From a virus, in the IMG/VR virus record IMGVR_UViG_3300014913_001316: 62,933 nt of DNA; one strand, given 5' to 3'. The position numbers and the translations under genes are program-made. Shown one piece after another: positions 1,680 through 42,034 of the stretch. Positions within the stretch are counted from its first letter, which is position 1. Every line of letters begins with the position of its first letter. The notes beneath the pieces were generated by a model. That model was not told where the DNA came from, ran no database searches, and was given only the letters and a program-made list of their open reading frames with translations.

Positions 1680-1681
1680 AT

Positions 1682-1967: not shown

Positions 1968-2765
1968 ATGTTTGAAGTGATGAAACCAAAAAAGATAGAT
2001 AGTATTCCTGTGAATAATGAGAGTGAGAAGTATATCTATGAGATTAAATATGATGGGGGGAGTGGTATACTTGTTAAACAGGGTGAACATGTAGATGTTT
2101 TTCATAACGGGAATAATACTCCTGTAACATATCGTTATCCTGAACTTTTACCAGAGTTGCATAATCTTAAAGATGGAGTGTATATTGCAGAGTTAATAGT
2201 GTCTACTAATGACATGGTTGGGGGGGATTTTGATTTGTTTCAGAAACGACAGGTTGAAAATCGTTTTAAAATAGAAAGACGTAAACAAATGTATCCTATT
2301 ACAGCGATAGTTTATGATATTGTTAAAAACGATGGTGAAGATATACGGGATTTAACTCTTTTTGAACGTAAAGAAATACTACATAAAAACGTATGTGATG
2401 GTGAACATATACGGGTTATTGAAAGTTTTTCTAACCCTGATAAGATACTTGAAAAACAGGATATATATGAAGGCATTGTTATCAAGGATATTAATAGTGT
2501 TTACAGGAATAGTAAACGTGATGGTTGGTTTAAATATCGTTTTAACAAGGAAGAGGTTGTCAGATTTGTAGATTTTGAGGATACTGAAACAGGTATTGTT
2601 TTACTTACAGAAGAGGGTAAACGTGTTAATCTCGCAGGTAAACGTAGTGAGATAGCAAAGGAGAAGATAAAAAATAATGGTTTTGTGGATTGCGAGATTT
2701 CTTGGAATAAAAAAACCGATAAAGGTTTTAGGTTTTGTGTAGTAAAAAGAATATTAGGGGATTAA
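1968..2765 (+). CDS. lig: Minimal ATP-dependent DNA ligase (adenylation domain plus short OB domain)
   Basis: Motif I YEIKYDG (KxDG), motif III YIAEL, motif IIIa VYDIV, motif IV EGIVIKD..S.Y, motif V WFKYR. Confidence 0.9.
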   Translation: MFEVMKPKKIDSIPVNNESEKYIYEIKYDGGSGILVKQGEHVDVFHNGNNTPVTYRYPELLPELHNLKDGVYIAELIVSTNDMVGGDFDLFQKRQVENRFKIERRKQMYPITAIVYDIVKNDGEDIRDLTLFERKEILHKNVCDGEHIRVIESFSNPDKILEKQDIYEGIVIKDINSVYRNSKRDGWFKYRFNKEEVVRFVDFEDTETGIVLLTEEGKRVNLAGKRSEIAKEKIKNNGFVDCEISWNKKTDKGFRFCVVKRILGD

Positions 2766-2767
2766 AA

Positions 2768-3004
2768 ATGGAATGTGAAACTGAAACTAAAAATAGGTTT
2801 AAAGCAGGTGTGTTTCAACTCTCTGAACATGAACTTGAGATGTTAGCACCAGAGTTTATGGAGATACATAATATTATCTCTCTTGCTAAAGTTGATACTG
2901 GTGTTAAAAATATACTCTTGACAGAGGTTTTACGGGAGTTTTGGAGTGAATTACAACAACAATTTTATGACTATTTCGGTAGTCAAGGAGTTATCAAGGA
3001 GTGA
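2768..3004 (+). CDS. Hypothetical protein
   Basis: ORF starts 2 nt after the ligase stop (track start 2735). Confidence 0.6.
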   Translation: MECETETKNRFKAGVFQLSEHELEMLAPEFMEIHNIISLAKVDTGVKNILLTEVLREFWSELQQQFYDYFGSQGVIKE

Positions 3005-3116
3005 GGAGTATGCTGACTAAAGAACAACTTGAGGCAATTGAACAGTTTGAAGCCGAGTTAGAAGTTAAAGAAAAAGAGAAAAAAGAGATTAACCATCCTT
3101 ATGGAGATGATTTAAT

Positions 3117-3812
3117 ATGAATAAAGATTTTAAAGTTAATATTGATAAAAAAGCACTTCTAAAGGTGTTAAGACGTGTAAAGCCACTTATTCCTGAAATA
3201 CGTATCTGTTTTAATGCAGATGGTATACATGTTAGAGAAGTGGATTATGGTCATGTTTGCATGTATGATGCAACTATATTTAAAAAATTTAGTTTAAATA
3301 AGGATGTCGTTTTTTGTGTTGATGTAGAAAAATTTGAAACAGTTTTATCTCTTGTTAAAAGTAACAATGTAACTCTTGAGTTTGATGGTAAACTTGTTGT
3401 TGATAAAAACTATAAAATTGGTTTACTTGAGATGCCTAAAGAGGATAAGTTGAAAATTCCTAATATTAAATTTGATGTAGAAGTTACACTTGATAGTTTA
3501 CAACGTATTAAGAGAATAGTATCTACAAATGTTAATGATTACTTGACTTTAAAGGTTGATAAAAATAAAACCTGTTGGGTTGATTTTAAAAGTGATGAAA
3601 TAGAAATACATGAACCACTTGGTAAGGCACGGATGTTATCGAAAGAAGTAAACTATCCTGTTACGGCTATGTATAGTATTGATTATTTTAAAAGCATTAT
3701 ACATGACCTTGATACTGCTATTCTCAGGTTTTCTACTGATGTTCCTATACAGGTTGTTGAAGAAGAAGATGACGAAAAGCATTTGTTTTTACTCGCACCA
3801 CGTATTGAGTGA
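3117..3812 (+). CDS. pcn: PCNA-like sliding clamp
   Basis: 231 aa; GIHVREVDYGHVCMYD, YSIDYF and C-terminal FLLAPRIE match archaeal PCNA patterns. Confidence 0.85.
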   Translation: MNKDFKVNIDKKALLKVLRRVKPLIPEIRICFNADGIHVREVDYGHVCMYDATIFKKFSLNKDVVFCVDVEKFETVLSLVKSNNVTLEFDGKLVVDKNYKIGLLEMPKEDKLKIPNIKFDVEVTLDSLQRIKRIVSTNVNDYLTLKVDKNKTCWVDFKSDEIEIHEPLGKARMLSKEVNYPVTAMYSIDYFKSIIHDLDTAILRFSTDVPIQVVEEEDDEKHLFLLAPRIE

Positions 3813-3889
3813 GGGTTTTTTATGGAAAGGAAATGTAGTGGAAAAAAAGGCAACTGGAAATTACACAGAGTAGAAGGTATGGGAAAAGT

Positions 3890-4543
3890 ATGACTTGGAC
3901 AGAGAAGTATAGACCAACATGTTTAGATGAAGTTGTTGGACAGGAAAAAGTTGTATCTTATTTCAAGAGATGTTTACAAACTGGGGATATAGACCATTGT
4001 ATTTTTACAGGTAAAAGTGGAACAGGAAAAACTACAATGGTAAAAGTAATCGCTAATGAATTCGGTAAACAAGTTATAAAGTTTAGCCCTTCTGACATTA
4101 ATAAACGTGGTAAAGATTTTGTTCACGATGATGTTATACCAGCCATGAGGCATTTATCTATTGACGGGGGTTGGAAGTTGATTTTTATAGAAGAATGTGA
4201 AACATTATCACGGCAGGCACAGGAAGAACTGCGAACTCCTCTTGAGGATTACTCCCATATTGCAAAAGTGATTTTTGCCTGTAATGATGATAGTAGCATT
4301 ATTCCAGCGATAAAAAGTCGTTGTATCCTGTTTACTTTTTTACCTATTTCTACACCTGATATGAAAAAACGGTTGCAGGTGATAATTGATAATGAAGGTA
4401 TTGTAATAGATGAAACTGATTTAGATACAATCTGTGAAAAAAGTCATGGAGATTTACGTAAAGCAATCAACTTGTTAAAAGCATATCATAACAATGCTCT
4501 TGAATTTAAAGATGAATTTAGTAAATTGTTTATGAGAGGATAA
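3890..4543 (+). CDS. rfcS: Replication factor C small-subunit-like clamp loader (AAA+ core, no C-terminal collar)
   Basis: WTEKYRP, VVGQ, Walker A GKSGTGKT, Walker B FIEE, AQ..LR..LE, SRC motif, GDLRKAIN. Confidence 0.9.
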   Translation: MTWTEKYRPTCLDEVVGQEKVVSYFKRCLQTGDIDHCIFTGKSGTGKTTMVKVIANEFGKQVIKFSPSDINKRGKDFVHDDVIPAMRHLSIDGGWKLIFIEECETLSRQAQEELRTPLEDYSHIAKVIFACNDDSSIIPAIKSRCILFTFLPISTPDMKKRLQVIIDNEGIVIDETDLDTICEKSHGDLRKAINLLKAYHNNALEFKDEFSKLFMRG

Positions 4544-4837
4544 AAAATGAAACGATATAAACTATTACCTTGGACATTAACAAATGATAAAAAACAAGCA
4601 GAAGAAATATTGAAAGCACTTAAAAAAGAAGGTTACAATGTAGAACTAAGAACCTGCTTTAAATATGGTATTTATATCAAGGAGAGATGATTTAAATGAA
4701 ATGCCCAAAATGTGGATATCAAATTGAGGAGAATAATGATAAAACTTTGATTTATTCAATAATTGCTATATCATTAGCGAGTTTTTCTCTGGGATTTCAA
4801 TTTGGTATATATTTATAAAAATATTGTGGTGAAAAAA

Positions 4838-4933
4838 ATGCCGAGAGTACATTTTGTAAAAAAAGCAAGAAAAGACTACCCAGAAGGAAGAAGAAAATGC
4901 TATCAGAATATGAAGGATATAAAAAACGTGTAA
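4838..4933 (+). pseudogene. Possible truncated gene remnant (MPRVHFVKKARKDYPEG...)
   Basis: Good GGTGA SD and a basic N-terminus, but the ORF stops after 31 codons and the downstream reading continues in another frame. Confidence 0.3.
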
Positions 4934-4967
4934 AAATAGATAAGAGATGCTGGGATGAGGAAGAAGA

Positions 4968-5228
4968 TTGTGGGGAATGAAAATGTATCTTGTGTCTAAA
5001 GAAGATTTAGAACGGCTTAAAGCAGGTGAAATAGATATAAAAGATTTAACAAAACCAGAACGAGAAGCATTGTTTACTTATACTGGTGAAGACATAAAAA
5101 TCATACTGGAGAAGAAAAAAAAGAAAAAAAACTTAGAAACAGTTGTAAAACATGTTAGAAAAGGACTTGAACACTGTGATTGCTGGGCTTGCATAGATTG
5201 TGCAATGTGGGATGTTTTAGGGGAATGA
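4968..5228 (+). CDS. Hypothetical protein with C-terminal Cys/His cluster
   Basis: HCDCWACIDC motif. Confidence 0.6.
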   Translation: MWGMKMYLVSKEDLERLKAGEIDIKDLTKPEREALFTYTGEDIKIILEKKKKKKNLETVVKHVRKGLEHCDCWACIDCAMWDVLGE

Positions 5229-5461
5229 AAATGAATTTAGAAGAATGGATTAAATATATTGAAGAGGGAATGAACAAGGGAGAAATTGAAAATAAATGTT
5301 GTTGGTGTGGTTCTCCTCTTCATGCTCAGGATTTAAAAAGGTATCCTCATGGTGATGGTTGGACAGTTGACGGTGAAGGGAAACAATGGCTGTATATCCC
5401 CTGTAGGAAATGTGGATATGAATGGGCTATCTGGAAGTTAGGAGTTGATAGAGAATGGTAG
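5180..5461 (+). CDS. Zinc-finger hypothetical protein (true start probably near 5225-5231)
   Basis: CCWCG...CRKCGYEW. Confidence 0.6.
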   Translation: MLGLHRLCNVGCFRGMKMNLEEWIKYIEEGMNKGEIENKCCWCGSPLHAQDLKRYPHGDGWTVDGEGKQWLYIPCRKCGYEWAIWKLGVDREW

Positions 5462-5586
5462 AAATCTATTTTAAAGATTTGAATAGAAAAAAACAGGAAG
5501 AACTACTTAGAATTGCAAATATAGACAAACCAGAAGATGCGAATTGGGATGTTATTCCACTGGCTATTATAGGAGTGGGTGATTAA
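5455..5586 (+). CDS. Small hypothetical protein (43 aa, not in ORF track)
   Basis: MVEIYFKDLNRKKQEELLRIANIDKPEDANWDVIPLAIIGVGD exactly fills the gap between two genes. Confidence 0.55.
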   Translation: MVEIYFKDLNRKKQEELLRIANIDKPEDANWDVIPLAIIGVGD

Positions 5587-5817
5587 ATGAAAGAAAAATA
5601 TAAAAAACTTTTAGAAAGCATTAACATACTCTTAGAGTATGAAAAAGAACATAAAATAAAATTGTTAAATAGGAGATGTAGGCAGTTGCATAAAAAAATT
5701 GAGGAAAAACTAACTGAAGAACAAAAAGTAGACCTTGAAGACCGAGTGATACGTCTTGAAAAAGAGATAAACAAACTATCACACATGCTTAAAGAGTTTA
5801 AGGTGGTGAAAGAATAA
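5587..5817 (+). CDS. Coiled-coil hypothetical protein
   Basis: Heptad-rich, TAATG coupling with the next gene. Confidence 0.6.
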   Translation: MKEKYKKLLESINILLEYEKEHKIKLLNRRCRQLHKKIEEKLTEEQKVDLEDRVIRLEKEINKLSHMLKEFKVVKE

Positions 5818-6002
5818 TGGTTTTAACTAAAAGTGAAAAAAAATACATTATTAACGAGTTTTTAGATATTCTATCCTGTAACCTTATAGGTGGTGGCGAG
5901 GTTACTCTGGATAACTACAAAAAATTTACAATAGATGATTTTACATATATTAAAACAAAAGATTTAGACCTTATTATTTCAATAATTGATAAACTGAAAT
6001 AA
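5817..6002 (+). CDS. Hypothetical protein
   Basis: 61-aa ORF, translationally coupled. Confidence 0.55.
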   Translation: MVLTKSEKKYIINEFLDILSCNLIGGGEVTLDNYKKFTIDDFTYIKTKDLDLIISIIDKLK

Positions 6003-6097
6003 ACAAATGGCGAGAGAGAAGGGGAAAATTCCAAACAATTCATCTCCTGGATTGATTTTTTTTATCCCTTCTCCGTCATAATTATTAGAGGGAAAAC

Positions 6098-7027
6098 ATG
6101 GGTGATGATGAGGAAACACTTGAAGAGTTATTTGAAAAACTGGCACGAGAGAGAGAACCACTTGATTTCCTCTCGCAGTTTATCTGCCCTACGTTAATCG
6201 GTGACATATGGGAATATATTAGGAAAGCAACTTTACTTCTTCTCGCTACACAAAACGATACAAACACAACAAGGATTAGACTACATACTCTCTTGGTTGG
6301 TTCACCAGGAACGGGTAAAACTGTGTTTCTCTCATGGGTACAGGAGAATCTTGGTGGGATTTTGATTAGTTCAGAACATACAAGTAAAACTGGATTAGTA
6401 GGAGATGCTCGTGGTCATCGTATTACTCCTGGTCTCCTCGCTGATTATGATGGTAACATCGTATTACCAGATGAGTTAGACAAGATGAGTGGATTAGACC
6501 AAAGTGGGCTTTTGCAGGCTATGGAAGAGGGTAAGTACATGATTGTTAAAGGGAAGCAACGTATGGAGTTTGATGCAGAAGTGAGAGTTATCGCTGGTGC
6601 TAATCAACTTGACAAAATTGTTAAACCTCTTCAGGATAGGTTTGATTTTATTTTTAAACTATCTGTTGTTAAACGTGAGAAACGTGCTGAGAATGTTGAT
6701 AAACTTATTAAAGCATTTTTTGGAACAAACGAGATGGAAAAAAGTCAGTTGATACTTGAGTATCTACGATGGGTAAAAGACTTTAAACCAGTTATTGAGG
6801 AACAAGATTTTGAAGCTATCTCTGAGATGATGGCTATGTATATTCGTAAGACTTCTACAAAGATTGATAATGTTAGTATTCGTAATCTTGAAATGAGTAT
6901 ACTGAGGATTGCTTATGCTATGGCTAAACTTGAAAAATCAAATATTAAACCTAAACATGTTAAAAGAGCAATTCTTTTTAAAAATGCTGTTTTGAAAAAA
7001 CTTGTTGGAGAACGAGACAATCTATAG
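6098..7027 (+). CDS. mcm: MCM-family AAA+ ATPase, catalytic core only (no N-terminal Zn/OB domain)
   Basis: LLVGSPGTGKT, GLVGDARG, DELDKM, LLQAMEEG, VIAGAN, DRFD, SIRNLE..ILRIAYAMAKL. Confidence 0.8.
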   Translation: MGDDEETLEELFEKLAREREPLDFLSQFICPTLIGDIWEYIRKATLLLLATQNDTNTTRIRLHTLLVGSPGTGKTVFLSWVQENLGGILISSEHTSKTGLVGDARGHRITPGLLADYDGNIVLPDELDKMSGLDQSGLLQAMEEGKYMIVKGKQRMEFDAEVRVIAGANQLDKIVKPLQDRFDFIFKLSVVKREKRAENVDKLIKAFFGTNEMEKSQLILEYLRWVKDFKPVIEEQDFEAISEMMAMYIRKTSTKIDNVSIRNLEMSILRIAYAMAKLEKSNIKPKHVKRAILFKNAVLKKLVGERDNL

Positions 7028-7234
7028 TTTATGTCTCCAGACTTTTGCTTCTGGAATCCATTCTTCATCTGATGATATGATGTCTTTTTTCATAAGGACA
7101 CAACAATGTGTATCGTATTCGCTTATTTTTGTACAGGATATGTTAACTGCTTCCCAGTTTTTTTTTGCATCTTCTGCCAAGTCTTCATTTAGAAACCTTG
7201 CATCTGAACAGAATACTCTATACATTCTACGCAT
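7022..7234 (-). CDS. Hypothetical protein
   Basis: Last gene of the minus-strand cluster, convergent with mcm. Confidence 0.5.
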   Translation of the reverse strand: MRRMYRVFCSDARFLNEDLAEDAKKNWEAVNISCTKISEYDTHCCVLMKKDIISSDEEWIPEAKVWRHKL

Positions 7235-7257
7235 CTTTTTAACTCCCTTTTATTCAT

Positions 7258-7506
7258 TTATCTCACTCTCCAAAAAATTGGTTCTTCAGTATAATAGGGT
7301 TTTTTACCAGCCCAGCATTCCATCTCTTTTCTGTTTTCACCAATGCATATGGTAATTGTTCCACCGAGGTCAAACCAGTCACGGGCAAGATTATAAAATT
7401 CCTTATAATCTTTTTTATCGAAATGAATGTTAGTATAAATCTCTATATGAGTAGGGTTAATGCCAACGCTTAAATCTCCCTCATCTGACATTTCAATATA
7501 GGTCAT
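7258..7506 (-). CDS. Hypothetical protein
   Basis: Tightly packed minus-strand ORF. Confidence 0.55.
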   Translation of the reverse strand: MTYIEMSDEGDLSVGINPTHIEIYTNIHFDKKDYKEFYNLARDWFDLGGTITICIGENRKEMECWAGKKPYYTEEPIFWRVR

Positions 7507-7510
7507 ATTT

Positions 7511-8068
7511 TCACCCTATTTTTTCTAATGCTTTTTTTATTTTATCCTGATAATACATCGATTCTCGTTTAAAATCAAACCATCCCTCATATGGTTCATG
7601 TTCTATACCTGTGATTATAGATGATGATTTATGACGTTCACCTATTGTTTGCGTTGTTGGATACCTAAGTTTAATGTTTGGCGATAGTTCCCATATATCT
7701 GCATGAATATCAGTATCATCAACATGCCCTACACAGTTTTTCATATACCACTCGTAGTTTTCACCTTTAGCAAAATGACCATTATGACTGGTCTGAGATT
7801 CGTTATGGCAGAACTCTACAAGTTTTTTGTTTTCCCAGAACATAGGATAATAATCATGCATCTTATTACCAGCAGTAGTTGGTTGTTTATTACCTACAAG
7901 GATGAAAGCCATGTCTTTAGCATCCTGTGGGTTGTATTTTTCTATAATGTAACAGGCTTGTTCACTTCTCCGAATGCCGTCATATTCACTGACATGATTA
8001 ATTAAGTTAGAGGGGCGTTTACTTGGTTGGCAATGAACCATATGAGCTTCAACGTATTCATCTTTCAT
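7511..8068 (-). CDS. Hypothetical protein
   Basis: 185-aa ORF in a co-oriented cluster. Confidence 0.65.
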   Translation of the reverse strand: MKDEYVEAHMVHCQPSKRPSNLINHVSEYDGIRRSEQACYIIEKYNPQDAKDMAFILVGNKQPTTAGNKMHDYYPMFWENKKLVEFCHNESQTSHNGHFAKGENYEWYMKNCVGHVDDTDIHADIWELSPNIKLRYPTTQTIGERHKSSSIITGIEHEPYEGWFDFKRESMYYQDKIKKALEKIG

Positions 8069-16023: not shown

Positions 16024-16377
16024 TTAGAGACTTTTGATTTTGTATATCATCAATACATCATCTATTTTATAATAAAAAAATTTTAAATGTACATCGAGAG
16101 GAGGCGGGCACATTCCTTCTATAAAACACATCTGATACGTGTTTTTAGCAGTGCCATGGTATTCATCAGCAAGGGAGACATTCCAAATAGAAACAGTTTT
16201 ATTGTTAAGGTTTAAGGTCTGGTTTGTTTCTGCTGAATATACCACCCATCCTGTAACATATTGTTCTTTTACTGGTTGTTGTAAATCATTTATGTAAACA
16301 AAAACTATAACTGCTACCGTTATAACTATTGCTATCATCAAAATTACGCCTACAATGGCTGATACTGCTCTTCGCAT
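16024..16377 (-). CDS. Archaeal type IV pilin-like protein (class III signal peptide)
   Basis: MRRA|VSAIVGVILMIAIVITVAVIVFVY matches the archaeal pilin N-terminal (DUF1628-type) consensus KKA|VSPVIGVILMVAI. Confidence 0.8.
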   Translation of the reverse strand: MRRAVSAIVGVILMIAIVITVAVIVFVYINDLQQPVKEQYVTGWVVYSAETNQTLNLNNKTVSIWNVSLADEYHGTAKNTYQMCFIEGMCPPPLDVHLKFFYYKIDDVLMIYKIKSL

Positions 16378-19591: not shown

Positions 19592-19807
19592 CTATCTCTC
19601 CACCATTCGGTTGAGGGAGTTAACTATTTCAATAGTAACTTTTTGAATACGTACTCCTGGTTGGTTGTCTTTAATAAACATCAAGTGGTCGTTATCTTTT
19701 ATGTTTAAAATATCCCTGACTGCTTTGGGGAAAGTTATCCGTTTTCTTGATTTAACTTGTATAATTTTTATAATGGTTTCTTTTGGCTGTTCAACCATAT
19801 AAATCAT
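19592..19807 (-). CDS. AbrB/MazE/SpoVT-family DNA-binding protein
   Basis: QVKSRKRITFPKAVRDILNIKDNDHLMF. Confidence 0.8.
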   Translation of the reverse strand: MIYMVEQPKETIIKIIQVKSRKRITFPKAVRDILNIKDNDHLMFIKDNQPGVRIQKVTIEIVNSLNRMVER

Positions 19808-19825
19808 ATCGGAATGTGTTTTTTG

Positions 19826-19873
19826 CTTTTAATATTTTTCCCATTTTTCCCATTTTTCACAATGTTTTTAAAA
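19826..19873. promoter_or_regulatory. Divergent promoter (AbrB / radical SAM) with CCC-N6-CCC
   Basis: CCC at 19840-42 and 19849-51; TATA-like boxes on both sides. Confidence 0.6.
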
Positions 19874-19902
19874 CCAAACGATATTACAAAGCTGGTGATG
19901 GT

Positions 19903-20862
19903 TTGGAGTTAAAAGAGTTAGTGATATATTTATCAAATGAATGTAATCTCAGATGTAAACACTGTTTCGTTAATCAGAGAGAAACGCAATCGTTAACATT
20001 AGATGATTTAGAATGGGTAAGGAAGACTTTTAAACCTAAAAAAACTATTCTTCTTGGCGGTGAACCTTTACTATATGAGCATCTTGAAACTGTTTTTAAA
20101 ATGTTTCCTAATATCCAGATTAGCACTAATGGTTTGTTGATTGAGAAGAATCTCAGGCTTCTGAGGAAATATAATGTTGTTTCTCAACTATCGATAGAAG
20201 GGGGTGAGAAAGAAACTGATTCTATACGAGGGTTAGGTGTTTGGGATAAAGTCATGGAGAGTGCTAAGTTACTTCAAAGATATAAACTTGAGTTTTATTT
20301 CCGTGTAGGGTATCATTTTGGTAATTTGAAAATGCTTGATGAAGTGTTTGATACTGCTAAAAAGTTTAAAGCGAGAGTTGTTTTGTTTCCACGAATTGAT
20401 TTACCGCCGTTGTCTACTCAGCTTCAGGAGGAATTATTTGAGTATGCTTTAAACATGAATAGTGTTGTTGCTCAGCCTCATTTTTTTAGATACTGTGGTA
20501 AAGAAGGGCGTTGTGGTGCTGGTAGTGAACGGCTTAACATATTTTATGATAAACGTATTACTCCTTGTAACCTTGACCTTGATTATACCATTGGTAGAAT
20601 CGGGGATGATGAGGAAAGTATAAAGCGAAATATCAAGATTTATTTGGAAGAGTATAAAGTTCCACCTGTTGAATGCACTGGGTGTAAATATAGTAGTAGT
20701 TGCAGAGGCAGTTGTTACGTTGCCAGGTCATACTTGGGGTGTCCTCTTAGGTTGAATCATAGCCTTGAGGATTATATTGTTACTAACCGTCTTGATGCTG
20801 AAAAAGTGCATAAACAGGTTGATGTTAATACTGATTTCATTAAAAGCGTCATAGTATGCTAA
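19903..20862 (+). CDS. Radical SAM enzyme with SPASM domain
   Basis: CNLRCKHC (CxxxCxxC), GGEPLL, STNG; SPASM CGAG...ITPC...CTGCKYSSSCRGSC. TTG start at 19903 after a GGTGA SD (track 19783). Confidence 0.9.
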   Translation: MELKELVIYLSNECNLRCKHCFVNQRETQSLTLDDLEWVRKTFKPKKTILLGGEPLLYEHLETVFKMFPNIQISTNGLLIEKNLRLLRKYNVVSQLSIEGGEKETDSIRGLGVWDKVMESAKLLQRYKLEFYFRVGYHFGNLKMLDEVFDTAKKFKARVVLFPRIDLPPLSTQLQEELFEYALNMNSVVAQPHFFRYCGKEGRCGAGSERLNIFYDKRITPCNLDLDYTIGRIGDDEESIKRNIKIYLEEYKVPPVECTGCKYSSSCRGSCYVARSYLGCPLRLNHSLEDYIVTNRLDAEKVHKQVDVNTDFIKSVIVC

Positions 20863-22325: not shown

Positions 22326-22952
22326 TTATCCCGTGTCCCTTTCTTCTCCTTCTTCCTCTTTTTCTTTCTCTCCTTTCTCTTCTTTTTCTTCTTTTTCTTT
22401 TTCCTCTTCTTTCTTTTCTTCACGTTTCCATAAGATGAATAAGAGTAAGAAGGCTATGAAGAAACATATGAAATACATTGGGATTTTTATTCTTTCAAAA
22501 AATGATGGTCTTGGTGGGATTGATACGGCTACTGGGACTGGTAGCTCGTATACTTTTTCACCCATGATGATGTTTGCTTGGCTATATTCTTGTGAATAAA
22601 AAGATACTGCGAAAGACCATGCTCTGTAGAAATAATGTGTGTTTACAGTTGTGCTGGTATCAATACATGTTTCTCCTGTTCCATTGTATATTACTATCCC
22701 ATCATGTATGTTCTGGGGGTATGAACCTGTTTTTCTAACTATGTATGTGGTTTCAGCGTTTTCTCCTTTCTCCCATTTTAAATCTACCATTGTTGTTGAA
22801 TCGTGTCGTTTTGCGGTTAAATGTTTAGGTGCACCAAGTACGCCGATGATGATGTTCATGTTGTCATCTGCTGCTATGGTTAAGGGTGAAAATAACGTTA
22901 GAGTTAACGTTAAAAGAAATATTATTGATACCAGGGTTTTTTTATTCGCCAT
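22326..22952 (-). CDS. Secreted FN3-domain protein with C-terminal TM and E/K-rich tail
   Basis: GAPKHLTA...VDLKW...TGSYP...DG..IYNGTG...YFYRAWS; tail KREEKKEEEKEKEE. Confidence 0.75.
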   Translation of the reverse strand: MANKKTLVSIIFLLTLTLTLFSPLTIAADDNMNIIIGVLGAPKHLTAKRHDSTTMVDLKWEKGENAETTYIVRKTGSYPQNIHDGIVIYNGTGETCIDTSTTVNTHYFYRAWSFAVSFYSQEYSQANIIMGEKVYELPVPVAVSIPPRPSFFERIKIPMYFICFFIAFLLLFILWKREEKKEEEKEKEEKEEKGEKEKEEEGEERDTG

Positions 22953-23938
22953 ACCACCACGCTTATAATAAATATAATGATGATTGTTATTAAAAAATAT
23001 ATTGCTGGTAGTATCGGTATGGATAACCCTGTTGTTTCTGGTATTCCTGATACTATAGTTATTGTATCTGAGAGGTAGTTTTCACCTGTTGCTGTAAGTT
23101 CGTATTCATAGTCGAAACGTGTCTCTGGCATCCTGAAAACAACTGTTCCTTTTTCATTCAAGGGTTTTGTTTCGCCATTGAATGTTACTTCTACGTTTGT
23201 TGGTATTTTTGTCCATGACTTGTCTGGTGGTCCGTATACAACTTTTACTGTGAAGTTTGTTCCTTTTTTTACTTTATGCGGGGCTGATATGTGTAATGGA
23301 AATTTAAAATCTATAAAGAGTTTTATTATAACTCCGCCCATCATACCCATTGGTTTATCGGTGTCTTCTTGAAGTGTGCCTCGTATGTGTAACTCCCAGT
23401 GTTTATTTTCGTTTTCTTTGATATAGCTATGTGTTGCATCATAGAGTACGTCTATGGAGCATGTTCCTCTTGGCTGTATTTTTTCAACTGTTCTCCAAGT
23501 ATAGTCTCCTATTTTTTGCAGGTGAAAGTTTTTACTGCCTTTTAAAGAGATGAAACGTAGTTCATCTCGAGGTATTGGTTCGTAAAAAACTAACTGGTTT
23601 GAATGGCAGTGGGGGCATTCTCCTATGAGTGGGTCTCCATACTGGTATCCAGGTATTGCTTCATATCTCTGTCCTTTCCAACCACATGTTTTACAGGTTA
23701 CTCTGCAGTGTATCATTTCAGTTGGTACTGGTTCAAATGTTTTGTTGTTAGAATATGGTTTCATAACTGTGAAAACACCATATTTTGGTGTATCTCCCCC
23801 GTTTATAAGGGTTGCTTGTGATATTTTTATTGTTTCTTTGTTACTGGTGTAAATATCTGCTGGTCCAAAACCGATTAAACTAGCTGATGCTGAGGTGGAA
23901 AACAGGGTGAGTATTAGTAGGATACATATTTTTTTCAT
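22922..23938 (-). CDS. Secreted, C-terminally anchored protein with internal CxxC...CxxC
   Basis: Signal peptide ending ASA, CKTC...CPHC, C-terminal TM. Confidence 0.7.
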   Translation of the reverse strand: MKKICILLILTLFSTSASASLIGFGPADIYTSNKETIKISQATLINGGDTPKYGVFTVMKPYSNNKTFEPVPTEMIHCRVTCKTCGWKGQRYEAIPGYQYGDPLIGECPHCHSNQLVFYEPIPRDELRFISLKGSKNFHLQKIGDYTWRTVEKIQPRGTCSIDVLYDATHSYIKENENKHWELHIRGTLQEDTDKPMGMMGGVIIKLFIDFKFPLHISAPHKVKKGTNFTVKVVYGPPDKSWTKIPTNVEVTFNGETKPLNEKGTVVFRMPETRFDYEYELTATGENYLSDTITIVSGIPETTGLSIPILPAIYFLITIIIIFIISVVVWRIKKPWYQ

Positions 23939-23949
23939 TTTTTTTTCAC

Positions 23950-26484
23950 CTAATGTTTTGCTAATGTTGCTGTTATGGTAATAGTTTGTTGGTCTCCAGT
24001 GGTAGAGGAAGTAGGTGAGTCGAATCTTAAATCAAATGTTTGGTTTTGAGTAGGGGGGATGTTGCTTGCTATTACTGTATCGCTTGCTGTAACAATCTGA
24101 TGTTCTGTACTCCAGCTATCACTACTAGCGTTGAGACGGTAAACATCTGCCCCTGGACCGTTACCACTTGTTGCAGCACTCCAATCCGCTGCATCACTGG
24201 TAATCTGAAGACTTAAATCAGTATAGACTGTGCAGTTGTCTTTTACACAGGTGAACGTGTTTGATGAGTTGGTCCAGTAGCTTGCACCCATCTGTACTGT
24301 ACCAATGTTCCATTGCGTAGGTGTTATCTCCATCCATATGTATTCTCCTGTTGGGTAGTCTAAATAGTCGTTTGGGTCTGTATTGTTTCCTATTTCACTA
24401 TTGTCACTGTATCCATCATTATCTGTATCCGATAGGAATGGGTTGGTGTAGTATGTGAATAGTTCTTGGTAATCATTTAAACCATCACTATCTGTATCAT
24501 ATTTTTTTAATACTGTATCAGATGGTATGTTGAAAAGTACGAAGGATGTGAATGAACGGTTTGAAATTACTCGTGGGTAGCTCCCGTATGCTTTTAAACC
24601 GCATATCTCGTATACGTTGTTATCTGTAATTGTTACTGGGTTGGATAAACTAATTTTTTGACAGGATAGATTATATGTATACCCTCCATAAGATATAGAT
24701 GTCCCTGATATAGGTGAGGGAGTATAACCATCTGTTACTGTGTTGTCTAGTTTTGCTCTGCTTTTGTTCCACCCAGCACTGGTCCAAAAGGATACGTTCC
24801 ACCAGAAATGCTGGTAGATGTTTTTTAAAGTTATAGATGGTATTGATATGCTTTCATCAAACCAGTATCCAAGAAAAACACTACAATATCTTGTATGGAC
24901 TGTATCTGTCGGTGTATCTTTTAAAAGATAACCTGTGTCAGTAGTTGCCCCATCTATACCTTGGTCATGATGTAGTATATCATGTAGTTTATGGTTATCT
25001 ACTGCACTTTTGGAGTAACTTGCTTCGTAGCAGTAGAATGGTTTATAGTTAAAATTTGCACTGTTTTCTTTTCCTTTTAAATACACATATCTTCTTGTTT
25101 GTTGAGTATTTGTATCTGTTTTATTCCATGCTGTAGAGTTTTTAGCATATGAGCCGTTAACATATATATCAAAAGAGTATTTTTTATCAGATGCTACTGT
25201 TATATTACCGCTTGTGTTGAATTCATACCAGTCTTTAGTTGTATGAGTAAAATAGTATGTCCAGTTTGTCCATGTATTGTCTTCCTTCCATTGTAACCAG
25301 ATATGGTTATTTGGCAACTCTGTAACAACTCCTGTAACTGTAAGGTTTATATATATAAATGTTTCACTCTGGATGGAATCATTTGTATAGTACCCATTTA
25401 AAGCATAAGGTCCGCCTGTGGAATCATTATCTGCTGGTGGTACACAATATGGTCCTCCTAAGTCGCCTAAATTGCCAGCGAAATTGATTTGTATCTCTGG
25501 TGTCGGAGCAGAAGAAGCGTGAGAATAAGCGTACAATCCATTACCAGCAACATCTACAAAGATGTTAGTTGAATCGCCCCATAAACCTGTGTACTCTCCA
25601 CCTTGGTCATCTGTATCTAAAAGGTCAAGAGAGACTGGAATACCAGACGTATCAAGCCAATAAGCTCGTAAACCATCTGCACCACATGCTGCATAAATAT
25701 ATGTTCCATCACCCCATACGTCATGATATGTACCACCGTCATCTCTATATGTAACTCTCGTAAAACTAGGGGGAAAACCGCTTAGCTTATAACAAGAAAT
25801 CCCACTTGTACCCTGAGCTGTATAAATATATGTTCCATCGCCCCATACGCCTTCATAATATCCGCCATTATCTATCGTATCCACAACATATAACGTACCG
25901 CTGTAGAGCCGATAGGCTCGTAAACCCGCTGTACCGCAGGCTACATAGATATACGTTCCGTCATACCATACGTCTTGGTAGCTACCGCTTTGGTAATCCG
26001 AGTCTATCAAACTATAGCCAAATATTGAATACTGGTATACTCTAAGACCACTACCAGCACAGGCTACATAAAGATAACCATCTCCACCATATAAATCCAT
26101 GTATGCCCCTCCATCGTCTCTACTGGCTTTTAAAGTAAAACCAGTTGTATCACTATAACTATATCCATGGATACCATCTGTGCTATCCGCAGTATGCACC
26201 ACTTTACCATCATAGTAGACTCCTCTATGCGTATAAGAATCAGAAGTATTATATAGCCTAAACAATGATTTGTCAAACATGTAAGCATTAAGTGCTTGTT
26301 CATTCACTGTAAAAATACGGCGGTTGCCATCTATTGTTGCTACATACGAGTCGTAATAGTATCCCCCATCGTCTCTAACATCCTCTATTATCAAATAAAG
26401 AGTAGGAGTAGCAGAAACTAAAGGTACAGGTATCAAAGAGAGTAGTAGTAGAGAAAAAAATAATGTTATAGTTATCTGTTTCAT
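23950..26484 (-). CDS. Putative tip adhesin: LVIVD-type beta-propeller, Ca-binding DxDxDG repeats and C-terminal pilin-like domain
   Basis: Repeats DDGGxYxDVWxDGTYIYxACGxxGLRAY; DTDSDGLNDYQE/DTDNDGYSD; last about 130 aa homologous to the 27419 gene. Confidence 0.75.
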   Translation of the reverse strand: MKQITITLFFSLLLLSLIPVPLVSATPTLYLIIEDVRDDGGYYYDSYVATIDGNRRIFTVNEQALNAYMFDKSLFRLYNTSDSYTHRGVYYDGKVVHTADSTDGIHGYSYSDTTGFTLKASRDDGGAYMDLYGGDGYLYVACAGSGLRVYQYSIFGYSLIDSDYQSGSYQDVWYDGTYIYVACGTAGLRAYRLYSGTLYVVDTIDNGGYYEGVWGDGTYIYTAQGTSGISCYKLSGFPPSFTRVTYRDDGGTYHDVWGDGTYIYAACGADGLRAYWLDTSGIPVSLDLLDTDDQGGEYTGLWGDSTNIFVDVAGNGLYAYSHASSAPTPEIQINFAGNLGDLGGPYCVPPADNDSTGGPYALNGYYTNDSIQSETFIYINLTVTGVVTELPNNHIWLQWKEDNTWTNWTYYFTHTTKDWYEFNTSGNITVASDKKYSFDIYVNGSYAKNSTAWNKTDTNTQQTRRYVYLKGKENSANFNYKPFYCYEASYSKSAVDNHKLHDILHHDQGIDGATTDTGYLLKDTPTDTVHTRYCSVFLGYWFDESISIPSITLKNIYQHFWWNVSFWTSAGWNKSRAKLDNTVTDGYTPSPISGTSISYGGYTYNLSCQKISLSNPVTITDNNVYEICGLKAYGSYPRVISNRSFTSFVLFNIPSDTVLKKYDTDSDGLNDYQELFTYYTNPFLSDTDNDGYSDNSEIGNNTDPNDYLDYPTGEYIWMEITPTQWNIGTVQMGASYWTNSSNTFTCVKDNCTVYTDLSLQITSDAADWSAATSGNGPGADVYRLNASSDSWSTEHQIVTASDTVIASNIPPTQNQTFDLRFDSPTSSTTGDQQTITITATLAKH
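23952..24213. repeat. 262-bp direct repeat, copy 1 (copy 2 at 27421-27682)
   Basis: Near-identical DNA encoding the shared C-terminal domain. Confidence 0.9.
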
Positions 26485-27392
26485 AATTTTGAAATAGAAT
26501 ACGGGTTGATAATATTTTTCAAAGAATAAACACGAAGCCCGTTGTTGTCACATGCTGTAAAAATGTGTGAAGAATTAGAAGTAGATGCCCAGTATATGCC
26601 ACCATCATATGCTTCTGCTACAAGATGTAGTGTTTTTGTGTAAACTTTTAAACCTTTTTTCCCGCAGCTAGCGTATATATATTTCGCATCAGTGTATACG
26701 TCATGGTACACACCACCATCATATCTCTGTTTAACACCCTCTGGAGTATACATTACCAGCCCATCTGTTGAACATGCACAGTATATTCCATCATCATCTC
26801 CATATATGCCTAAATAATATCTTCCATCGTTAATGTTATACTGGAAATGCAACCGTATACCATCAAAATATAACACGTTTAATCCTTCGCTACCTGAAGC
26901 AGTGTAAACTCGTTGGTTTTTACTCCATACGTCAAGGCATCTAATAGGGTAACTATCAAGTAAGGTAAGGGTTTTTGTATAAACTTTTAAAGAATTAACA
27001 CAGGCTACATAAACATAGTTGTCATCTACAAAAACTTTGTTGTAGAAATCTGTACCGTCTTTAGATTCAGCGGCTAAATGTAACTTGTTTTCTTTAAAAG
27101 AATAAGCTCTAACTCCTTGATAACCGCATGCTGTATAAACTATATTGTTTTTATAAAAAACTCCTCTGTATAATCCTCCATCGTCTATAGTATCTAGTAA
27201 AATTAGTTTCTCTGAAAAAAGATAAACTCGTAAACCATCATCATCACATGCTGTAAAAACTATGTTGTTGTTACATGATACGTCATAGTAGTATCCACCA
27301 TGGTACGCCTCTGCATTCAACTCCAGATATGGTGTTACTGAGGAGACTGGAGTTAAAAAAAACATTATACCTATCAACAATATCTTTTTCAT
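26481..27392 (-). CDS. Secreted LVIVD-like beta-propeller protein
   Basis: Repeated DGGxYxxV..VYTACGxxGLRVY blades, paralogous to the N-terminal part of 23950. Confidence 0.75.
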   Translation of the reverse strand: MKKILLIGIMFFLTPVSSVTPYLELNAEAYHGGYYYDVSCNNNIVFTACDDDGLRVYLFSEKLILLDTIDDGGLYRGVFYKNNIVYTACGYQGVRAYSFKENKLHLAAESKDGTDFYNKVFVDDNYVYVACVNSLKVYTKTLTLLDSYPIRCLDVWSKNQRVYTASGSEGLNVLYFDGIRLHFQYNINDGRYYLGIYGDDDGIYCACSTDGLVMYTPEGVKQRYDGGVYHDVYTDAKYIYASCGKKGLKVYTKTLHLVAEAYDGGIYWASTSNSSHIFTACDNNGLRVYSLKNIINPYSISKL

Positions 27393-27418
27393 AAAACAAG
27401 TAATATTTTTATTATTTT

Positions 27419-27946
27419 TTAATGTTTTGCTAATGTTGCTGTTATGGTGATAGTTTGTTGGTCTCCAGTGCTTGTAGACGTGGGTGCATCGAAACGAGTA
27501 TCAAATGTCTGGTTGTTACCTGCTGGTATGTTGCTTGCTATTACTGTATCGCTTGCTGTAACAATCTGATGCTCTGTACTCCAGCTATCACTACTAGCGT
27601 TGAGACGGTAAACATCTGCCCCTGGACCGTTACCACTCGTAGCAGCACTCCAATCCGCTGCATCATTCGTAATCTGAAGACTAAGGTCTGTGTTTACAGA
27701 AGTATTGTCTAAATCTGCAATCCATGTAACTCCTGTTTCATTAGTCCAATGATGACTACCCATTGCTACAACTCCTAAGTTCCATGAAGTATTAGTAATG
27801 TTGATGTATAAATACTCTCCTTGTACTATTATGTCGAAAGTATCCGTAGTAGCTGCTGATACTTGAGGTGGATGAAGGGGATAAAATGTTAAACTAGTTA
27901 AAATTAGAAAGACCAATGTAATCTTTAACAGAATAGTTTTTTGCAT
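27419..27946 (-). CDS. Secreted single-domain pilin/fimbrillin-like protein (candidate fibre shaft subunit)
   Basis: Signal peptide ending VSA, 11-aa N-terminal strand ATTDTFDIIVQ, beta-sandwich ending TITITATLAKH; own promoter. Confidence 0.65.
   Translation of the reverse strand: MQKTILLKITLVFLILTSLTFYPLHPPQVSAATTDTFDIIVQGEYLYINITNTSWNLGVVAMGSHHWTNETGVTWIADLDNTSVNTDLSLQITNDAADWSAATSGNGPGADVYRLNASSDSWSTEHQIVTASDTVIASNIPAGNNQTFDTRFDAPTSTSTGDQQTITITATLAKH
27421..27682. repeat. 262-bp direct repeat, copy 2
   Basis: See 23952-24213. Confidence 0.9.
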
Positions 27947-41575: not shown

Positions 41576-42034
41576 TTATGTTACTATATTTGTGAAACTC
41601 TCTGTAACCCATCTCCCTAAAGGGTTACGAGGGGCTATTCCTATCACTACACCTACAACTTGTTGTTTTGATACAAGGGTGTCAAACCCTGTGTTGTAGT
41701 CTCCTTTTACAAGGTATTCATTGTTTCTGATAGATATAATTCTATGTCCTATGAGTGTATCATCTTTGGAGTAGATTAGTATGTCTCCCACTCGTGGGTT
41801 GAAACATGGGCTGTTTTTTGATAGTATAACGAGGATGTCGCCGTTTTGTATAGTAGGTTGCATACTATAGCCTATTGCTTTACTTGTGAAGACATAGTTT
41901 TTATTTTCATTTATTAAATATAGTAATGGGAAATCTACAGAGAATATTAAAATAGTACATAAGAGGATTATTATGGTTGTGATGATGATTTTGTTATCCT
42001 CTATAATGTTCACCTCAGCTCGTTTTTCAGACAA
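41576..42034 (-). CDS. Signal peptidase I, ER/archaeal Sec11/SipW type (S26B)
   Basis: N-terminal TM, GYSMQPTIQNGDIL (Ser), GDILIY, GHRI (His), KGDYN (Asp). Confidence 0.9.
   Translation of the reverse strand: MSEKRAEVNIIEDNKIIITTIIILLCTILIFSVDFPLLYLINENKNYVFTSKAIGYSMQPTIQNGDILVILSKNSPCFNPRVGDILIYSKDDTLIGHRIISIRNNEYLVKGDYNTGFDTLVSKQQVVGVVIGIAPRNPLGRWVTESFTNIVT

Follow-up and report, generated by a model that had tools for sequence, protein, structure and literature searches.

A four-gene cassette on a contig suggestive of an archaeal mobile element may encode a cell-surface pilus that assembles through donor-strand exchange

The locus and its genes

The locus studied here lies on the minus strand of the window, the whole 62,933-nt stretch of DNA that was analysed (IMG/VR record IMGVR_UViG_3300014913_001316). 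Four genes make up a cassette, encoding a small pilin, a large tip adhesin candidate, a membrane-bound chaperone-like protein and a membrane anchor. The two open reading frames of the preliminary description, 23950-26484 and 27419-27946, were both recovered as described, with products of 844 and 175 aa. The features of the locus are as follows.

27419..27946, minus strand: pilin (putative shaft subunit), 175 aa, open reading frame
27854-27946, minus strand: Sec signal peptide of the pilin, residues 1-31
27821-27853, minus strand: putative donor strand of the pilin, ATTDTFDIIVQ, residues 32-42
27422-27820, minus strand: acceptor domain of the pilin, an incomplete beta-sandwich, residues 43-175
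26481..27392, minus strand: secreted 303-aa protein with propeller-type repeats
23950..26484, minus strand: tip adhesin candidate, 844 aa, open reading frame
Tip residues about 26-330: about seven propeller-type repeats, after the signal peptide
Tip residues 331-about 680: middle domain, fold without assignment
Tip residues 686-706: TSP3 calcium-binding repeats (PF18884)
23953-24348, minus strand: C-terminal acceptor domain of the tip without a donor strand, residues 713-844
22922..23938, minus strand: chaperone-like, membrane-anchored protein, 338 aa
Chaperone-like protein, residues about 20-213: PapD-like Ig N-domain, after the signal peptide
Chaperone-like protein, C82, C85, C108 and C111: four-Cys insertion in the N-domain
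Chaperone-like protein, residues 213-299: second Ig-like domain
Chaperone-like protein, residues about 302-335: C-terminal transmembrane (TM) helix
22326..22952, minus strand: anchor and terminator candidate, 208 aa
22839-22871, minus strand: donor-strand motif ADDNMNIIIGV at the mature N-terminus of the anchor, residues 28-38
22422-22493, minus strand: TM helix of the anchor, residues 154-177
23938..24237, no strand: DNA repeat copy 1, covering the 3' end of the tip gene and the 12 nt past its stop codon
27407..27706, no strand: DNA repeat copy 2, covering the 3' end of the pilin gene and the 12 nt past its stop codon
21776..22201, minus strand: conserved neighbour, 141 aa, with three hydrophobic segments
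19783..20862, plus strand: conserved neighbour, a radical SAM enzyme, Cys-rich at its C-terminus (PF04055 match)

The content of the contig suggests an archaeal, mobile-element-like origin. Its replication genes encode an MCM-like AAA+ protein, a ligase, a weak PCNA-like match and a primase-like protein, and the window also holds a 40-kb block of secreted proteins. Homologues of the 141-aa neighbour follow the anchor gene in three related loci (L001, L005 and L010), and a radical SAM gene, whose product may be a maturase, adjoins the module in L001, L005, L010, L018 and L019.

A pilin and a tip adhesin candidate with a shared domain

The C-terminus of the 844-aa protein is homologous to the mature small protein. 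BLASTP aligned tip residues 713-844 with pilin residues 43-175 at 101 of 133 identical positions (76%, E 1e-63), with the homology beginning exactly at GEY. The identical run of 47 residues reported earlier, from DAADWS to ASNIP, was confirmed, and both proteins end in TITITATLAKH. As had also been described, ATTDTFDIIVQ is confined to the small protein, where it links GEY to a Sec-type leader whose last residues are VSA; the TSP3-type repeats precede the shared domain in the 844-aa protein. Each copy of the corresponding DNA repeat begins 12 nt 3' of the stop codon of its gene; identity between the two is 84% across 300 nt and 87% in the last 262 nt. The repeat is a mosaic: its core, ~170 nt long, is ~97% identical, its last 50 nt are 98% identical and the flanks are much more diverged, a pattern that fits gene conversion between the tip and pilin copies. 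The 64-nt spacer upstream of the pilin gene is A/T-rich with TATA-like runs, and the promoter of its own that was claimed for this gene is only plausible from these letters.

Such a recent conversion mosaic, together with the lack of a match to any known family, would also fit a generic Ig-like domain duplicated by recombination, the small protein being a decayed or truncated copy that assembles nothing. The wider family makes this explanation highly improbable. A profile of the domain gave 274 matches among 1.84 billion proteins, most of them free-standing, secreted and 155-190 aa long; these pilins, of ~170 aa, share a conserved DTFDITVTGEY N-terminus. The free-standing form makes up the majority of a large conserved family, its signal peptide is intact and its N-terminal motif hardly varies, and the small gene is kept beside its partners across loci that are only 40-60% identical.

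The same search returned more than 20 large proteins (342-3435 aa) with the acceptor domain at the extreme C-terminus, behind unrelated heads. In many fused forms a donor-like stretch (e.g. TSDTFHFTT) comes before the acceptor domain but looks like the closing strand of an FN3-like domain ahead of it, which makes similarity to the motif weak evidence when taken by itself. The fused form of locus L015 combines a head, a donor strand and the domain. In the tip, the pilin domain lies furthest towards the C-terminus and stands behind a variable head that differs between loci; homologues of the head of the 844-aa protein belong to LVIVD or lactonase propeller Pfam families. The proposal that this protein is a tip adhesin, with an acceptor domain and no donor strand, is supported on the available in silico tests.

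The 303-aa propeller fared differently. It had been listed as an accessory part of the fibre, and it proved to be a paralogue of the tip's head with neither donor motif nor acceptor domain, absent from most related loci, which leaves its assignment to the fibre unsupported. L003/L004 alone have its gene, located between those for the pilin and the tip. In L001, L005, L010 and L011, a large protein with a C-terminal acceptor domain is encoded directly after the pilin, and L019 has a different order.

Structure prediction gave a consistent picture of the pilin. An N-terminal strand bound in cis, named beforehand as an outcome that would speak against polymerisation, was not seen in the AF2 monomer (mean pLDDT 69), in which the extension was unplaced and mature residues 1-13 had pLDDT <50. 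In the three-copy model (pLDDT 91), the strand lies in the groove of the neighbour, antiparallel to its C-terminal strand: residues 1-14 of one copy touch the following one at residues 15-31 and 119-143, with the pairs 4-139, 7-136 and 11-133 defining an antiparallel register. The ipSAE was 0.69, 0.68 and 0.70 in three runs versus 0.00 in the best of three controls. In the calibration of the tool, 20 of 30 proteins solved as pairs reached this mark, as did one of 23 solved as single chains; that calibration relied on two copies and on alignments of its own, and is only roughly applicable to a three-copy model. The complex predictor may be inclined towards strand-swapped arrangements that it learned from pili of known structure.

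The closest solved folds to the pilin model are donor-strand fibres, with the Hyper2 tube first (9bac, Z 8.4, 120 residues, 3.3 A), followed by the CanX cannula (9h8b, Z 7.4), TasA (7.1), AbpA (6.5), Tafi (6.5) and FimG/FimA (6.4-6.5), although these are middling matches: models that lack a clear match typically reach a best Z of 7-8, and the Ig-like sandwich is a common fold. The Foldseek list consisted mostly of Fim, Pap, Cup and Csu pilins, matched weakly (E 0.014 or higher), and the pilin profile matched CsuA/B marginally (E 0.05). A profile search against PDB sequences with the pilin family matched no CanX, AbpA or other TasA-superfamily protein. Among the window proteins and 139 family members, there was no match to Peptidase_M73, nor to WxL (Pfam) at E <=0.01, and no part of the system was matched by sequence to Pfam/NCBIfam, including WxL, DUF916/WxLIP, PapD_N and Peptidase_M73. 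The earlier reading of the small protein as a shaft subunit that polymerises via its N-terminal donor strand was supported in every in silico test available.

WxL clusters were viewed before 2026 as short surface display complexes, and the present genes could likewise form a stalk, with one anchor, one or few pilins and one large adhesin, instead of a fibre. The logic of strand docking is equally valid for such a 1:1:1 complex, and gene conversion between the tip and pilin domains would keep docking surfaces matched. Nevertheless, donor strand and acceptor groove are both present in the pilin, whose predicted head-to-tail self-binding is an open-ended geometry, whereas a pure adaptor needs no self-compatibility. 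We therefore regard a short stalk as unlikely.

The chaperone-like protein, the anchor and the exchange of the cassette

The part list of the preliminary description held up for the shaft and the tip, and lacked two components, namely the chaperone-like gene (22922-23938) and the donor-bearing anchor (22326-22952). The AF2 model of the 338-aa protein (pLDDT 85) has an N-domain that folds like the PapD, FimC and WxLIP chaperones, and a C-terminal TM helix is present. VIA-align ranked YadV (Z 10.7), FimC (10.0), SafB (9.8) and WxLIP 9i1y (9.7) for this domain, with chaperone-usher chaperones spanning Z 9.4-10.7; Foldseek matched the protein to FimC, Caf1M and PapD at E about 1e-6, and an Atlas search placed it with a PapD_N cluster (TM 0.44). 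By sequence, it has no DUF916/WxLIP match, and no Usher or PapD Pfam match was found in the ~40 window ORFs scanned, which included all those >350 aa. The gene always adjoins the pilin and tip genes. On the strength of the predicted fold, the 338-aa protein is a candidate chaperone that may hold open-groove subunits until exchange. The four-Cys insertion of its N-domain is not known in PapD-like chaperones, and the protein could simply be an Ig-domain surface protein.

The 208-aa protein consists of a signal peptide, a donor motif, an FN3-like domain, a TM helix and a K/E-rich tail, and has no acceptor domain. The motif D[TNDS][FM][DNST][IV][TIVL][VI] occurs 28 times in 707 ORFs (113,049 residues), against a chance expectation of ~0.2 roughly estimated from typical residue frequencies. 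With one exception, it was located only at the mature N-terminus of pilins and of the TM-anchored proteins, and it is common to the pilin and the anchor in every locus. Moreover, the motifs of pilin and anchor agree at 51 of 100 positions within loci, compared with 42.3 for shuffled pairings (P about 8e-5). All 11 anchor homologues have a C-terminal TM helix, and LPxTG was not seen in their C-terminal 60 residues; attachment is by the TM helix and the charged tail. Judged from its sequence, the 208-aa protein is likely to be both terminator and anchor.

About 10 distinct loci, some of them on Thermoplasmatota MAG contigs, have the pilin, tip, chaperone-like and anchor genes together. When the window is compared with L005, the proteins of the flanking genes are 84-98% identical, whereas within the cassette the pilin is 66%, the chaperone-like protein 51% and the anchor 43% identical and the tip heads are unrelated. 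This contrast indicates that the genes move as one unit, the cassette being swapped between near-identical elements.

These observations bear on a rival explanation, in which the pilin builds a matrix or thread fibre of the TasA/CanX/AbpA type by donor-strand complementation and without a chaperone, and the 338-aa and 208-aa proteins are unrelated surface proteins that are only coincidentally linked. The best pilin folds, those of Hyper2, CanX cannulae and TasA, belong to proteins that polymerise without a chaperone (PMC12518558), and an S24/S26-type signal peptidase is encoded in the window (41576-42034), as beside many TasA-like genes (PMC12518558). Such a fibre would leave unexplained the exact donor motif at the mature N-terminus of the TM-anchored protein in every locus, the co-variation of that motif with the pilin motif, the PapD-like fold and TM helix of the 338-aa protein and the unit swapping of all four genes; nor was Peptidase_M73 matched. 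We consider this explanation improbable.

A proposed pilus and its relation to known systems

Taken together, the genes from 27419 to 22326 probably constitute a single cassette whose products form a pilus on the cell surface through donor-strand exchange. All the support for this reading is in silico: homology, fold class, strand complementation between pilins, motif sharing, gene linkage and cassette swapping. In the proposed mechanism, the pilin would be secreted and its leader cut after VSA, while the membrane-anchored 338-aa protein would hold subunits with an open groove until exchange. Repeated donor-strand exchange between pilins would then build a linear shaft. The tip lacks a donor strand and could therefore only accept one, which would place it at the distal end with its propeller-containing head displayed. 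Finally, the 208-aa anchor, through its donor motif, would fill the groove of the last pilin, end elongation and hold the fibre at the membrane. We infer tip capping, chaperone activity and termination by the anchor in this scheme, together with fibre length and a place on the cell instead of the virion.

The fibre had been placed on either the virion or the infected cell. Of these alternatives, the cell is favoured, since the module includes a membrane-anchored base and chaperone-like parts and occurs in chromosomal-looking Thermoplasmatota MAG contigs, beside archaellum and housekeeping-type genes; a location on the virion appears unlikely. The window does combine mobile-element replication genes with its secreted block, and the cassette is hypervariable between near-identical elements, as receptor-binding viral genes often are, so that the element might be an enveloped archaeal virus with a receptor-binding appendage whose TM-anchored base sits in the viral membrane. 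Against this, no viral hallmark gene came to light, neither PHROGs (10 window proteins) nor Pfam (~40 window ORFs) detected a capsid, portal, terminase or other structural family, the IMG/VR collection held no relative of the pilin, and the chromosomal setting of the module speaks for a cellular structure. The enveloped-virus explanation is therefore very unlikely.

None of the papers searched described a chaperone-containing donor-strand system for archaea. We tentatively suggest, at somewhat less than even confidence, that the cassette represents the first chaperone-guided donor-strand-exchange pilus of Archaea, a Thermoplasmatota mobile-element cassette with tip, shaft, anchor and a membrane-tethered PapD-like chaperone, either convergent with the bacterial chaperone-usher and Elr/WxL systems or very distantly related to them. 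If so, the cell or surface to which the carrier binds may be determined by the variable tip adhesin.

The preliminary description cited chaperone-usher pili, TasA fibres and archaeal bundling pili or threads as established donor-strand systems, and the rival of a chaperone-free fibre follows its framing; Elr/WxL and chaperone-usher pili are closer to the cassette than the chaperone-free fibres are. TasA-superfamily archaeal fibres (CanX, CanA, Hyper2, AbpA, AbpX and Saci_0406 threads; also Tafi) share secretion, archaeal hosts and an N-terminal donor strand with the present system and match the pilin model best in structure. However, they have been described as homopolymers that form without a chaperone and have neither a dedicated tip adhesin nor a membrane-anchored terminator, the known families are reported mainly in Thermoproteota or haloarchaea (PMC12518558, PMC9245690, PMC12337348), and no sequence match to them, Peptidase_M73 included, was found.

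Chaperone-usher pili (Fim, Pap, Csu, Caf) likewise use donor-strand exchange via an N-terminal extension, their tip adhesins have a pilin domain without that extension, and the candidate chaperone is PapD-like in fold. They differ in that the present system has no usher and no outer membrane, its chaperone-like protein is membrane-tethered, its putative terminator is a membrane anchor instead of a PapH-like pilin, and the two share no sequence relationship.

The Elr/WxL pilus of Enterococcus faecalis and other Bacillota comprises the pilin ElrD, the tip ElrA, the DUF916/DUF3324 membrane chaperone ElrE and the terminator ElrB; this four-part logic was shown experimentally in Enterococcus, in a preprint of October 2026 that found the system only in Bacillota (bioRxiv 10.64898/2026.10.17.759780). 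No sequence homology is detectable, with WxL, DUF916/WxLIP and DUF3324 all unmatched. Whereas Elr/WxL relies on LPxTG and sortase, the base here has a TM helix, a charged tail and FN3 or PKD domains; the chaperone-like protein carries a four-Cys insertion, and the module resides in archaea, namely Thermoplasmatota MAGs and an element whose replication genes are archaeal. The likenesses lie in the architecture: a small secreted pilin that has a donor strand of about 14 residues at the N-terminus as well as an incomplete Ig-like domain, a donor strand antiparallel to the acceptor's C-terminal strand (here in silico only), large adhesins with variable heads and an extreme C-terminal pilin domain that lacks the donor strand, and a base subunit with a donor strand and no acceptor domain. 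The L015 fused form recalls an E. faecium adhesin able to sit inside the fibre. By this comparison, the closest analogue of the cassette is the chaperone-guided Elr/WxL pilus, together with chaperone-usher pili, rather than the chaperone-free TasA or thread fibres.

The pilin and the tip protein

The putative fibre genes of this element lie in a block of minus-strand genes.

22326-22952, minus strand: anchor, 208 aa
22922-23938, minus strand: chaperone-like protein, 338 aa
23950-26484, minus strand: tip protein, 844 aa
26481-27392, minus strand: propeller protein, 303 aa
27419-27946, minus strand: pilin, 175 aa

The preliminary description proposed a donor-strand fibre in which a pilin-like shaft subunit shares its domain with a propeller tip adhesin. 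Both reading frames were recovered with the lengths listed, and BLASTP aligned tip residues 713-844 with pilin residues 43-175 at 76% identity (E 1e-63), starting exactly at GEY and including the 47-residue identical run and the common TITITATLAKH end. The Sec-type leader ending in VSA and the following ATTDTFDIIVQ belong to the pilin only and have no counterpart in the tip, in which TSP3-type calcium-binding repeats directly precede the C-terminal domain. The reported DNA repeat is also present (23938-24237 and 27407-27706) and starts 12 nt past the stop codons of both genes. It is a mosaic: identity is ~97% in a core of ~170 nt and 98% in the last 50 nt, but the parts between and before them are much more diverged, a pattern that fits gene conversion between two neighbouring paralogues. 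The pilin body and the tip C-domain are often homogenised within a locus, being ~92% identical in the related locus L005 and 76% in the window; identity is lower, 51-66%, in L001, L011 and L019.

Two other claims fared less well. The propeller nature of the tip head is backed by about seven repeats of ~42 aa and by the LVIVD/lactonase annotations of its homologues, but not by any direct Pfam match, and an Atlas feature search with the head gave no usable match. The 303-aa propeller protein, proposed as an accessory fibre part, lacks both the N-terminal motif and the domain and is missing from most loci, and is therefore not counted as part of the fibre. The middle region of the tip (residues 331-712) recurs in 20 other large secreted proteins at 37-68% identity, with differing N- and C-terminal partners, and could be assigned to no family.

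In the AF2 monomer of the mature pilin (mean pLDDT 69), residues 1-13 have pLDDT below 50, so the N-terminal extension is not bound in cis in this model. Exhaustive structural comparison of this model placed donor-strand fibres closest, with the Hyper2 tube 9bac on top (Z 8.4, 120 residues aligned, 3.3 A), followed by the Pyrodictium cannula 9h8b (Z 7.4), the TasA fibre (Z 7.1), AbpA, the Tafi pilus and FimG (Z 6.5 each) and FimA (Z 6.4), with EcpA, Csu and others lower. Foldseek likewise returned mostly Fim, Pap, Cup and Csu pilins, AbpA, TasA and Saci_0406, at weak E-values (0.014 or higher). Given middling Z-scores and the frequent occurrence of Ig-like folds, these matches give the fold class and are no proof of relationship.

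Self-complementation was predicted when three copies of the mature pilin were modelled with a 139-row alignment: ipSAE was 0.69, 0.68 and 0.70, compared with 0.00 for the best of three controls, pLDDT was 91 and all contacts agreed between runs. Calibration of the method gave this ipSAE mark for 20 of 30 proteins solved as pairs and for 1 of 23 solved as single chains; made with two copies and the method's own alignments, it is only a rough guide for the three-copy pilin. Residues 1-14 contact residues 15-31 and 119-143 of the neighbour, the closest pairs being 4 with 139, 7 with 136 and 11 with 133. The modelled donor strand thus has an antiparallel orientation relative to the acceptor's C-terminal strand, which is the geometry of chaperone-usher and Elr donor-strand exchange.

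A word-indexed search yielded 29 close pilin relatives of 157-175 aa, all of which carry a signal peptide and, immediately after it, a nearly invariant motif (consensus DQTSDTFDITVTGEY). When 1.84 billion proteins were searched exhaustively with the profile, 274 matched at E 0.001 or lower; most of these are secreted, free-standing and 155-190 aa long. More than 20 large proteins (342-3435 aa) have the domain too, invariably at the extreme C-terminus; in such fused forms it starts at the strand equivalent to YLYINITN, after TSP3 repeats or the last strand of an FN3-like domain. The small free-standing protein is the common form of a large unannotated family. Pfam and NCBIfam models matched none of 139 family members, and neither the pilin, the tip C-domain, the chaperone-like protein nor the anchor has a significant Pfam, NCBIfam or PHROGs family. 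The NCBIfam 'cell motility protein' NOV3845Y, which matched the tip at E 0.008 and one family member at E 0.0005, was rejected as below cut-off, as were the weak choice-of-anchor D and T matches. Against PDB sequences the family profile gave marginal matches alone (auracyanin, E 0.015; CsuA/B, E 0.05), and a scan of IMG/VR found no pilin relatives.

More than 100 distant members (P0175-P0295; L030:3387-3947; E 1e-15 to 1e-5) are small and secreted, with N-termini such as ADTATITVTVT. The two contexts inspected, those of the family proteins P0175 and P0322, look bacterial and often contain runs of two or three paralogues; their gene contexts are different and lack chaperone-like and anchor genes, so we do not extend the pilus model to them. 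The distant members may represent a wider superfamily of strand-donating subunits.

The anchor and the chaperone-like protein

Two parts of the module, the anchor and the chaperone-like protein, were absent from the preliminary description. The anchor has 208 aa in the window and 326-519 aa elsewhere, where its homologues contain FN3-like or PKD domains. The motif of the pilin extension recurs in it, directly after the signal peptide.

Donor motifs of pilin and anchor in the window and three related loci
Locus; pilin; anchor
Window; ATTDTFDIIVQ; ADDNMNIIIGV
L001; SDTFDITVTG; NDTFDITVSA
L018; TDTFDITVTG; NDDFDITVTG
L026; NDTFLVTMSG; SDNFQVSMNV

Written as a seven-residue pattern, the motif was counted 28 times in 707 ORFs (113,049 residues), compared with ~0.2 expected by chance, a rough estimate from typical residue frequencies. 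It is confined to the mature N-termini of pilins and anchors, with one exception, a fused form in locus L015. Within a locus, the motifs of pilin and anchor share 51 of 100 positions, versus 42.3 after shuffling (P ~8e-5, 10 loci). This agreement fits two strands suited to one groove; gene conversion could also be its source. A TM helix and then a charged tail close the sequence of all 11 anchors, and the acceptor domain was found in none of them. Able, on this reading, to donate a strand but not to accept one, and fixed in the membrane, the anchor looks as expected for a terminator that also anchors the fibre.

Locus L015 encodes a 388-aa protein (1498-2664, plus strand) with an N-terminal head, a linker, the full donor motif TSDTFDITVTG and an acceptor domain. 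A subunit of this build could act as donor and acceptor at once and so be placed within a fibre. An E. faecium WxL adhesin is likewise predicted inside the fibre (bioRxiv 10.64898/2026.10.17.759780), although its domain order is reversed relative to that of the L015 protein.

In the window the chaperone-like gene and the anchor gene share 31 nt. The chaperone-like family (~340 aa) is marked by an invariant GFGP motif and four invariant cysteines, with a TM helix at the C-terminus. In the AF2 model (pLDDT 85), the best structural matches of the N-domain (residues ~20-213) are pilus chaperones: YadV (Z 10.7), FimC (10.0), SafB (9.8), WxLIP 9i1y (9.7), CupB2 (9.6), EcpB (9.4), FaeE (9.2), PapD (8.7) and CsuC (8.5). 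However, non-chaperone Ig-like domains fall in the same range (PorA N-domain, 9.9; MSP domains, 9.1-9.3). Foldseek returned many tandem-Ig proteins, FimC, Caf1M and PapD among them at E ~1e-6, and the Atlas search returned a PapD_N chaperone cluster (TM 0.44) over residues 1-212. The family profile gave nothing useful against PDB sequences, and no PF06030 (WxLIP/DUF916) match was above cut-off in four Thermoplasmatota MAGs. The predicted likeness to PapD-like chaperones is one of fold only. Residues 79-118 form an insertion in the extracellular Ig-like domain with the four invariant cysteines (CxxC...CxxC); it may represent a zinc ribbon or a disulfide knot, and PapD-like folds do not usually have such a feature.

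Cassette exchange, carriers and probable location of the fibre

The window has a single pilin, tip, anchor and chaperone-like gene with these features. Comparison of 26 related loci revealed a recurrent module of a pilin, a large C-domain protein, a ~340-aa protein and a TM-anchored protein, with gene order and spacing varying between loci. It is seen in the window, L001/L009, L003/L004, L005, L010, L018, L019 and L023-L026, and L011 and L015 show it in part; in all, ~10 distinct loci have three or more of the four parts. A 141-aa membrane protein is a conserved neighbour.

The window and L005 (Ga0190348_1000030) are near-identical elements whose flanking proteins are 84-98% identical on both sides. 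Inside the cassette, in contrast, identity drops to 66% for the pilin, 51% for the chaperone-like protein and 43% for the anchor, and the L005 tip (926 aa) has a head unrelated to that of the window; exactly these genes have therefore been swapped jointly. L005 also has an additional 411-aa ORF on the opposite strand (6361-7596).

Two enzyme genes of the window are conserved as well. A radical SAM enzyme with a Cys-rich C-terminus (19783-20862, plus strand) adjoins the module on the opposite strand; it is also found in L001, L005, L010, L018 and L019, as the immediate neighbour of the pilin gene in the loci L010 and L019, and could act as a maturase on one of the secreted proteins. The block of secreted-protein genes also keeps a 152-aa S24/S26-type signal peptidase (41576-42034, minus strand; PF00717, E 2.6e-5; also L001:156-614 and L002:4404-4862), which may process the many leaders found here, by analogy with SipW and TasA.

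The window carries genes of mobile-element type, namely an MCM-like AAA+ protein, a minimal ATP-dependent ligase and weak PCNA-like and primase-like matches, together with a methylase fragment and HTH/transposase-like genes. Genes are on the plus strand at both ends (1-7400 and 57000-62933) and on the minus strand in the centre; the ends show strong GC skew and hold the ligase, PCNA-like, MCM-like and primase-like genes. No tRNA or rRNA was found in the window, no viral hallmark genes among the window proteins scanned, and no direct or inverted terminal repeats at the window ends. The window also encodes an archaeal type IV pilin of 117 aa (16024-16377, minus strand; N-terminal domain PF07790, E 1.5e-7), with no assembly ATPase for it among the ORFs scanned.

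All four matches in the genome collection are contigs of Thermoplasmatota or Thermoplasmata MAGs. The module adjoins archaellum genes (FlaI-type ATPase, KaiC-like FlaH and archaellin) in L024, and a histidine kinase and a sugar epimerase in L025. Of 401 sampled Thermoplasmatota genomes, only three, already known as module carriers, had the chaperone-like N-domain; the system is thus rare and patchily distributed, which is what mobile cargo should show. The preliminary description placed the fibre on either the virion or the infected cell. An enveloped virion is the less likely location; the cell surface is favoured by the cellular contexts and by the base and the chaperone-like protein, both of which are membrane-anchored.

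Comparison with known systems

Donor-strand exchange with a dedicated chaperone has so far been a bacterial speciality, that of chaperone-usher pili and, according to an October 2026 preprint, of the WxL/Elr pilus. If our reading is true, the whole design of tip, shaft, anchor and PapD-like protein exists in, or arose again in, archaea, and four families with no Pfam or NCBIfam annotation can be named. The system is directly testable, with four small genes and a clear peptide-groove prediction. Moreover, replacement of the cassette between near-identical elements suggests that adhesion specificity is traded among archaeal mobile elements, like phage tail fibres. Within the model, capping by the tip, termination of the fibre, the activity of the chaperone-like protein and the length of the fibre are what we infer.

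Cannulae, ABP, threads and Tafi share the fold class of the pilin. However, they are chaperone-free homopolymers without tip or anchor subunits as described (PMC12518558, PMC9245690, PMC12337348), whereas the present module adds tip, anchor and chaperone-like parts. The Pam pilus, described as exclusive to CPR bacteria and as having its own operon and chaperones (PMC13278184), was set aside as a match.

The nearest counterpart of the module is the Elr/WxL pilus, found in Bacillota only according to an October 2026 preprint (bioRxiv 10.64898/2026.10.17.759780). There, ElrD polymerises via a 15-residue N-terminal donor strand that is oriented antiparallel to the strand at the acceptor's C-terminus, ElrA is a tip adhesin that carries a WxL domain at its C-terminus and lacks a donor strand, and ElrB has a donor strand and an LPxTG anchor without an acceptor domain (bioRxiv 10.64898/2026.10.17.759780). 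Each of these roles is reproduced in the present module, as read from sequence and models. In contrast, sequence homology between the two is undetectable, a TM helix takes the place of LPxTG in the present anchor, the chaperone-like protein contains an insertion with four Cys and the setting is archaeal. Taken together, because the roles match while sequence homology is undetectable, we propose that the module works like an Elr or chaperone-usher pilus and stands outside the WxL, chaperone-usher and TasA sequence families.
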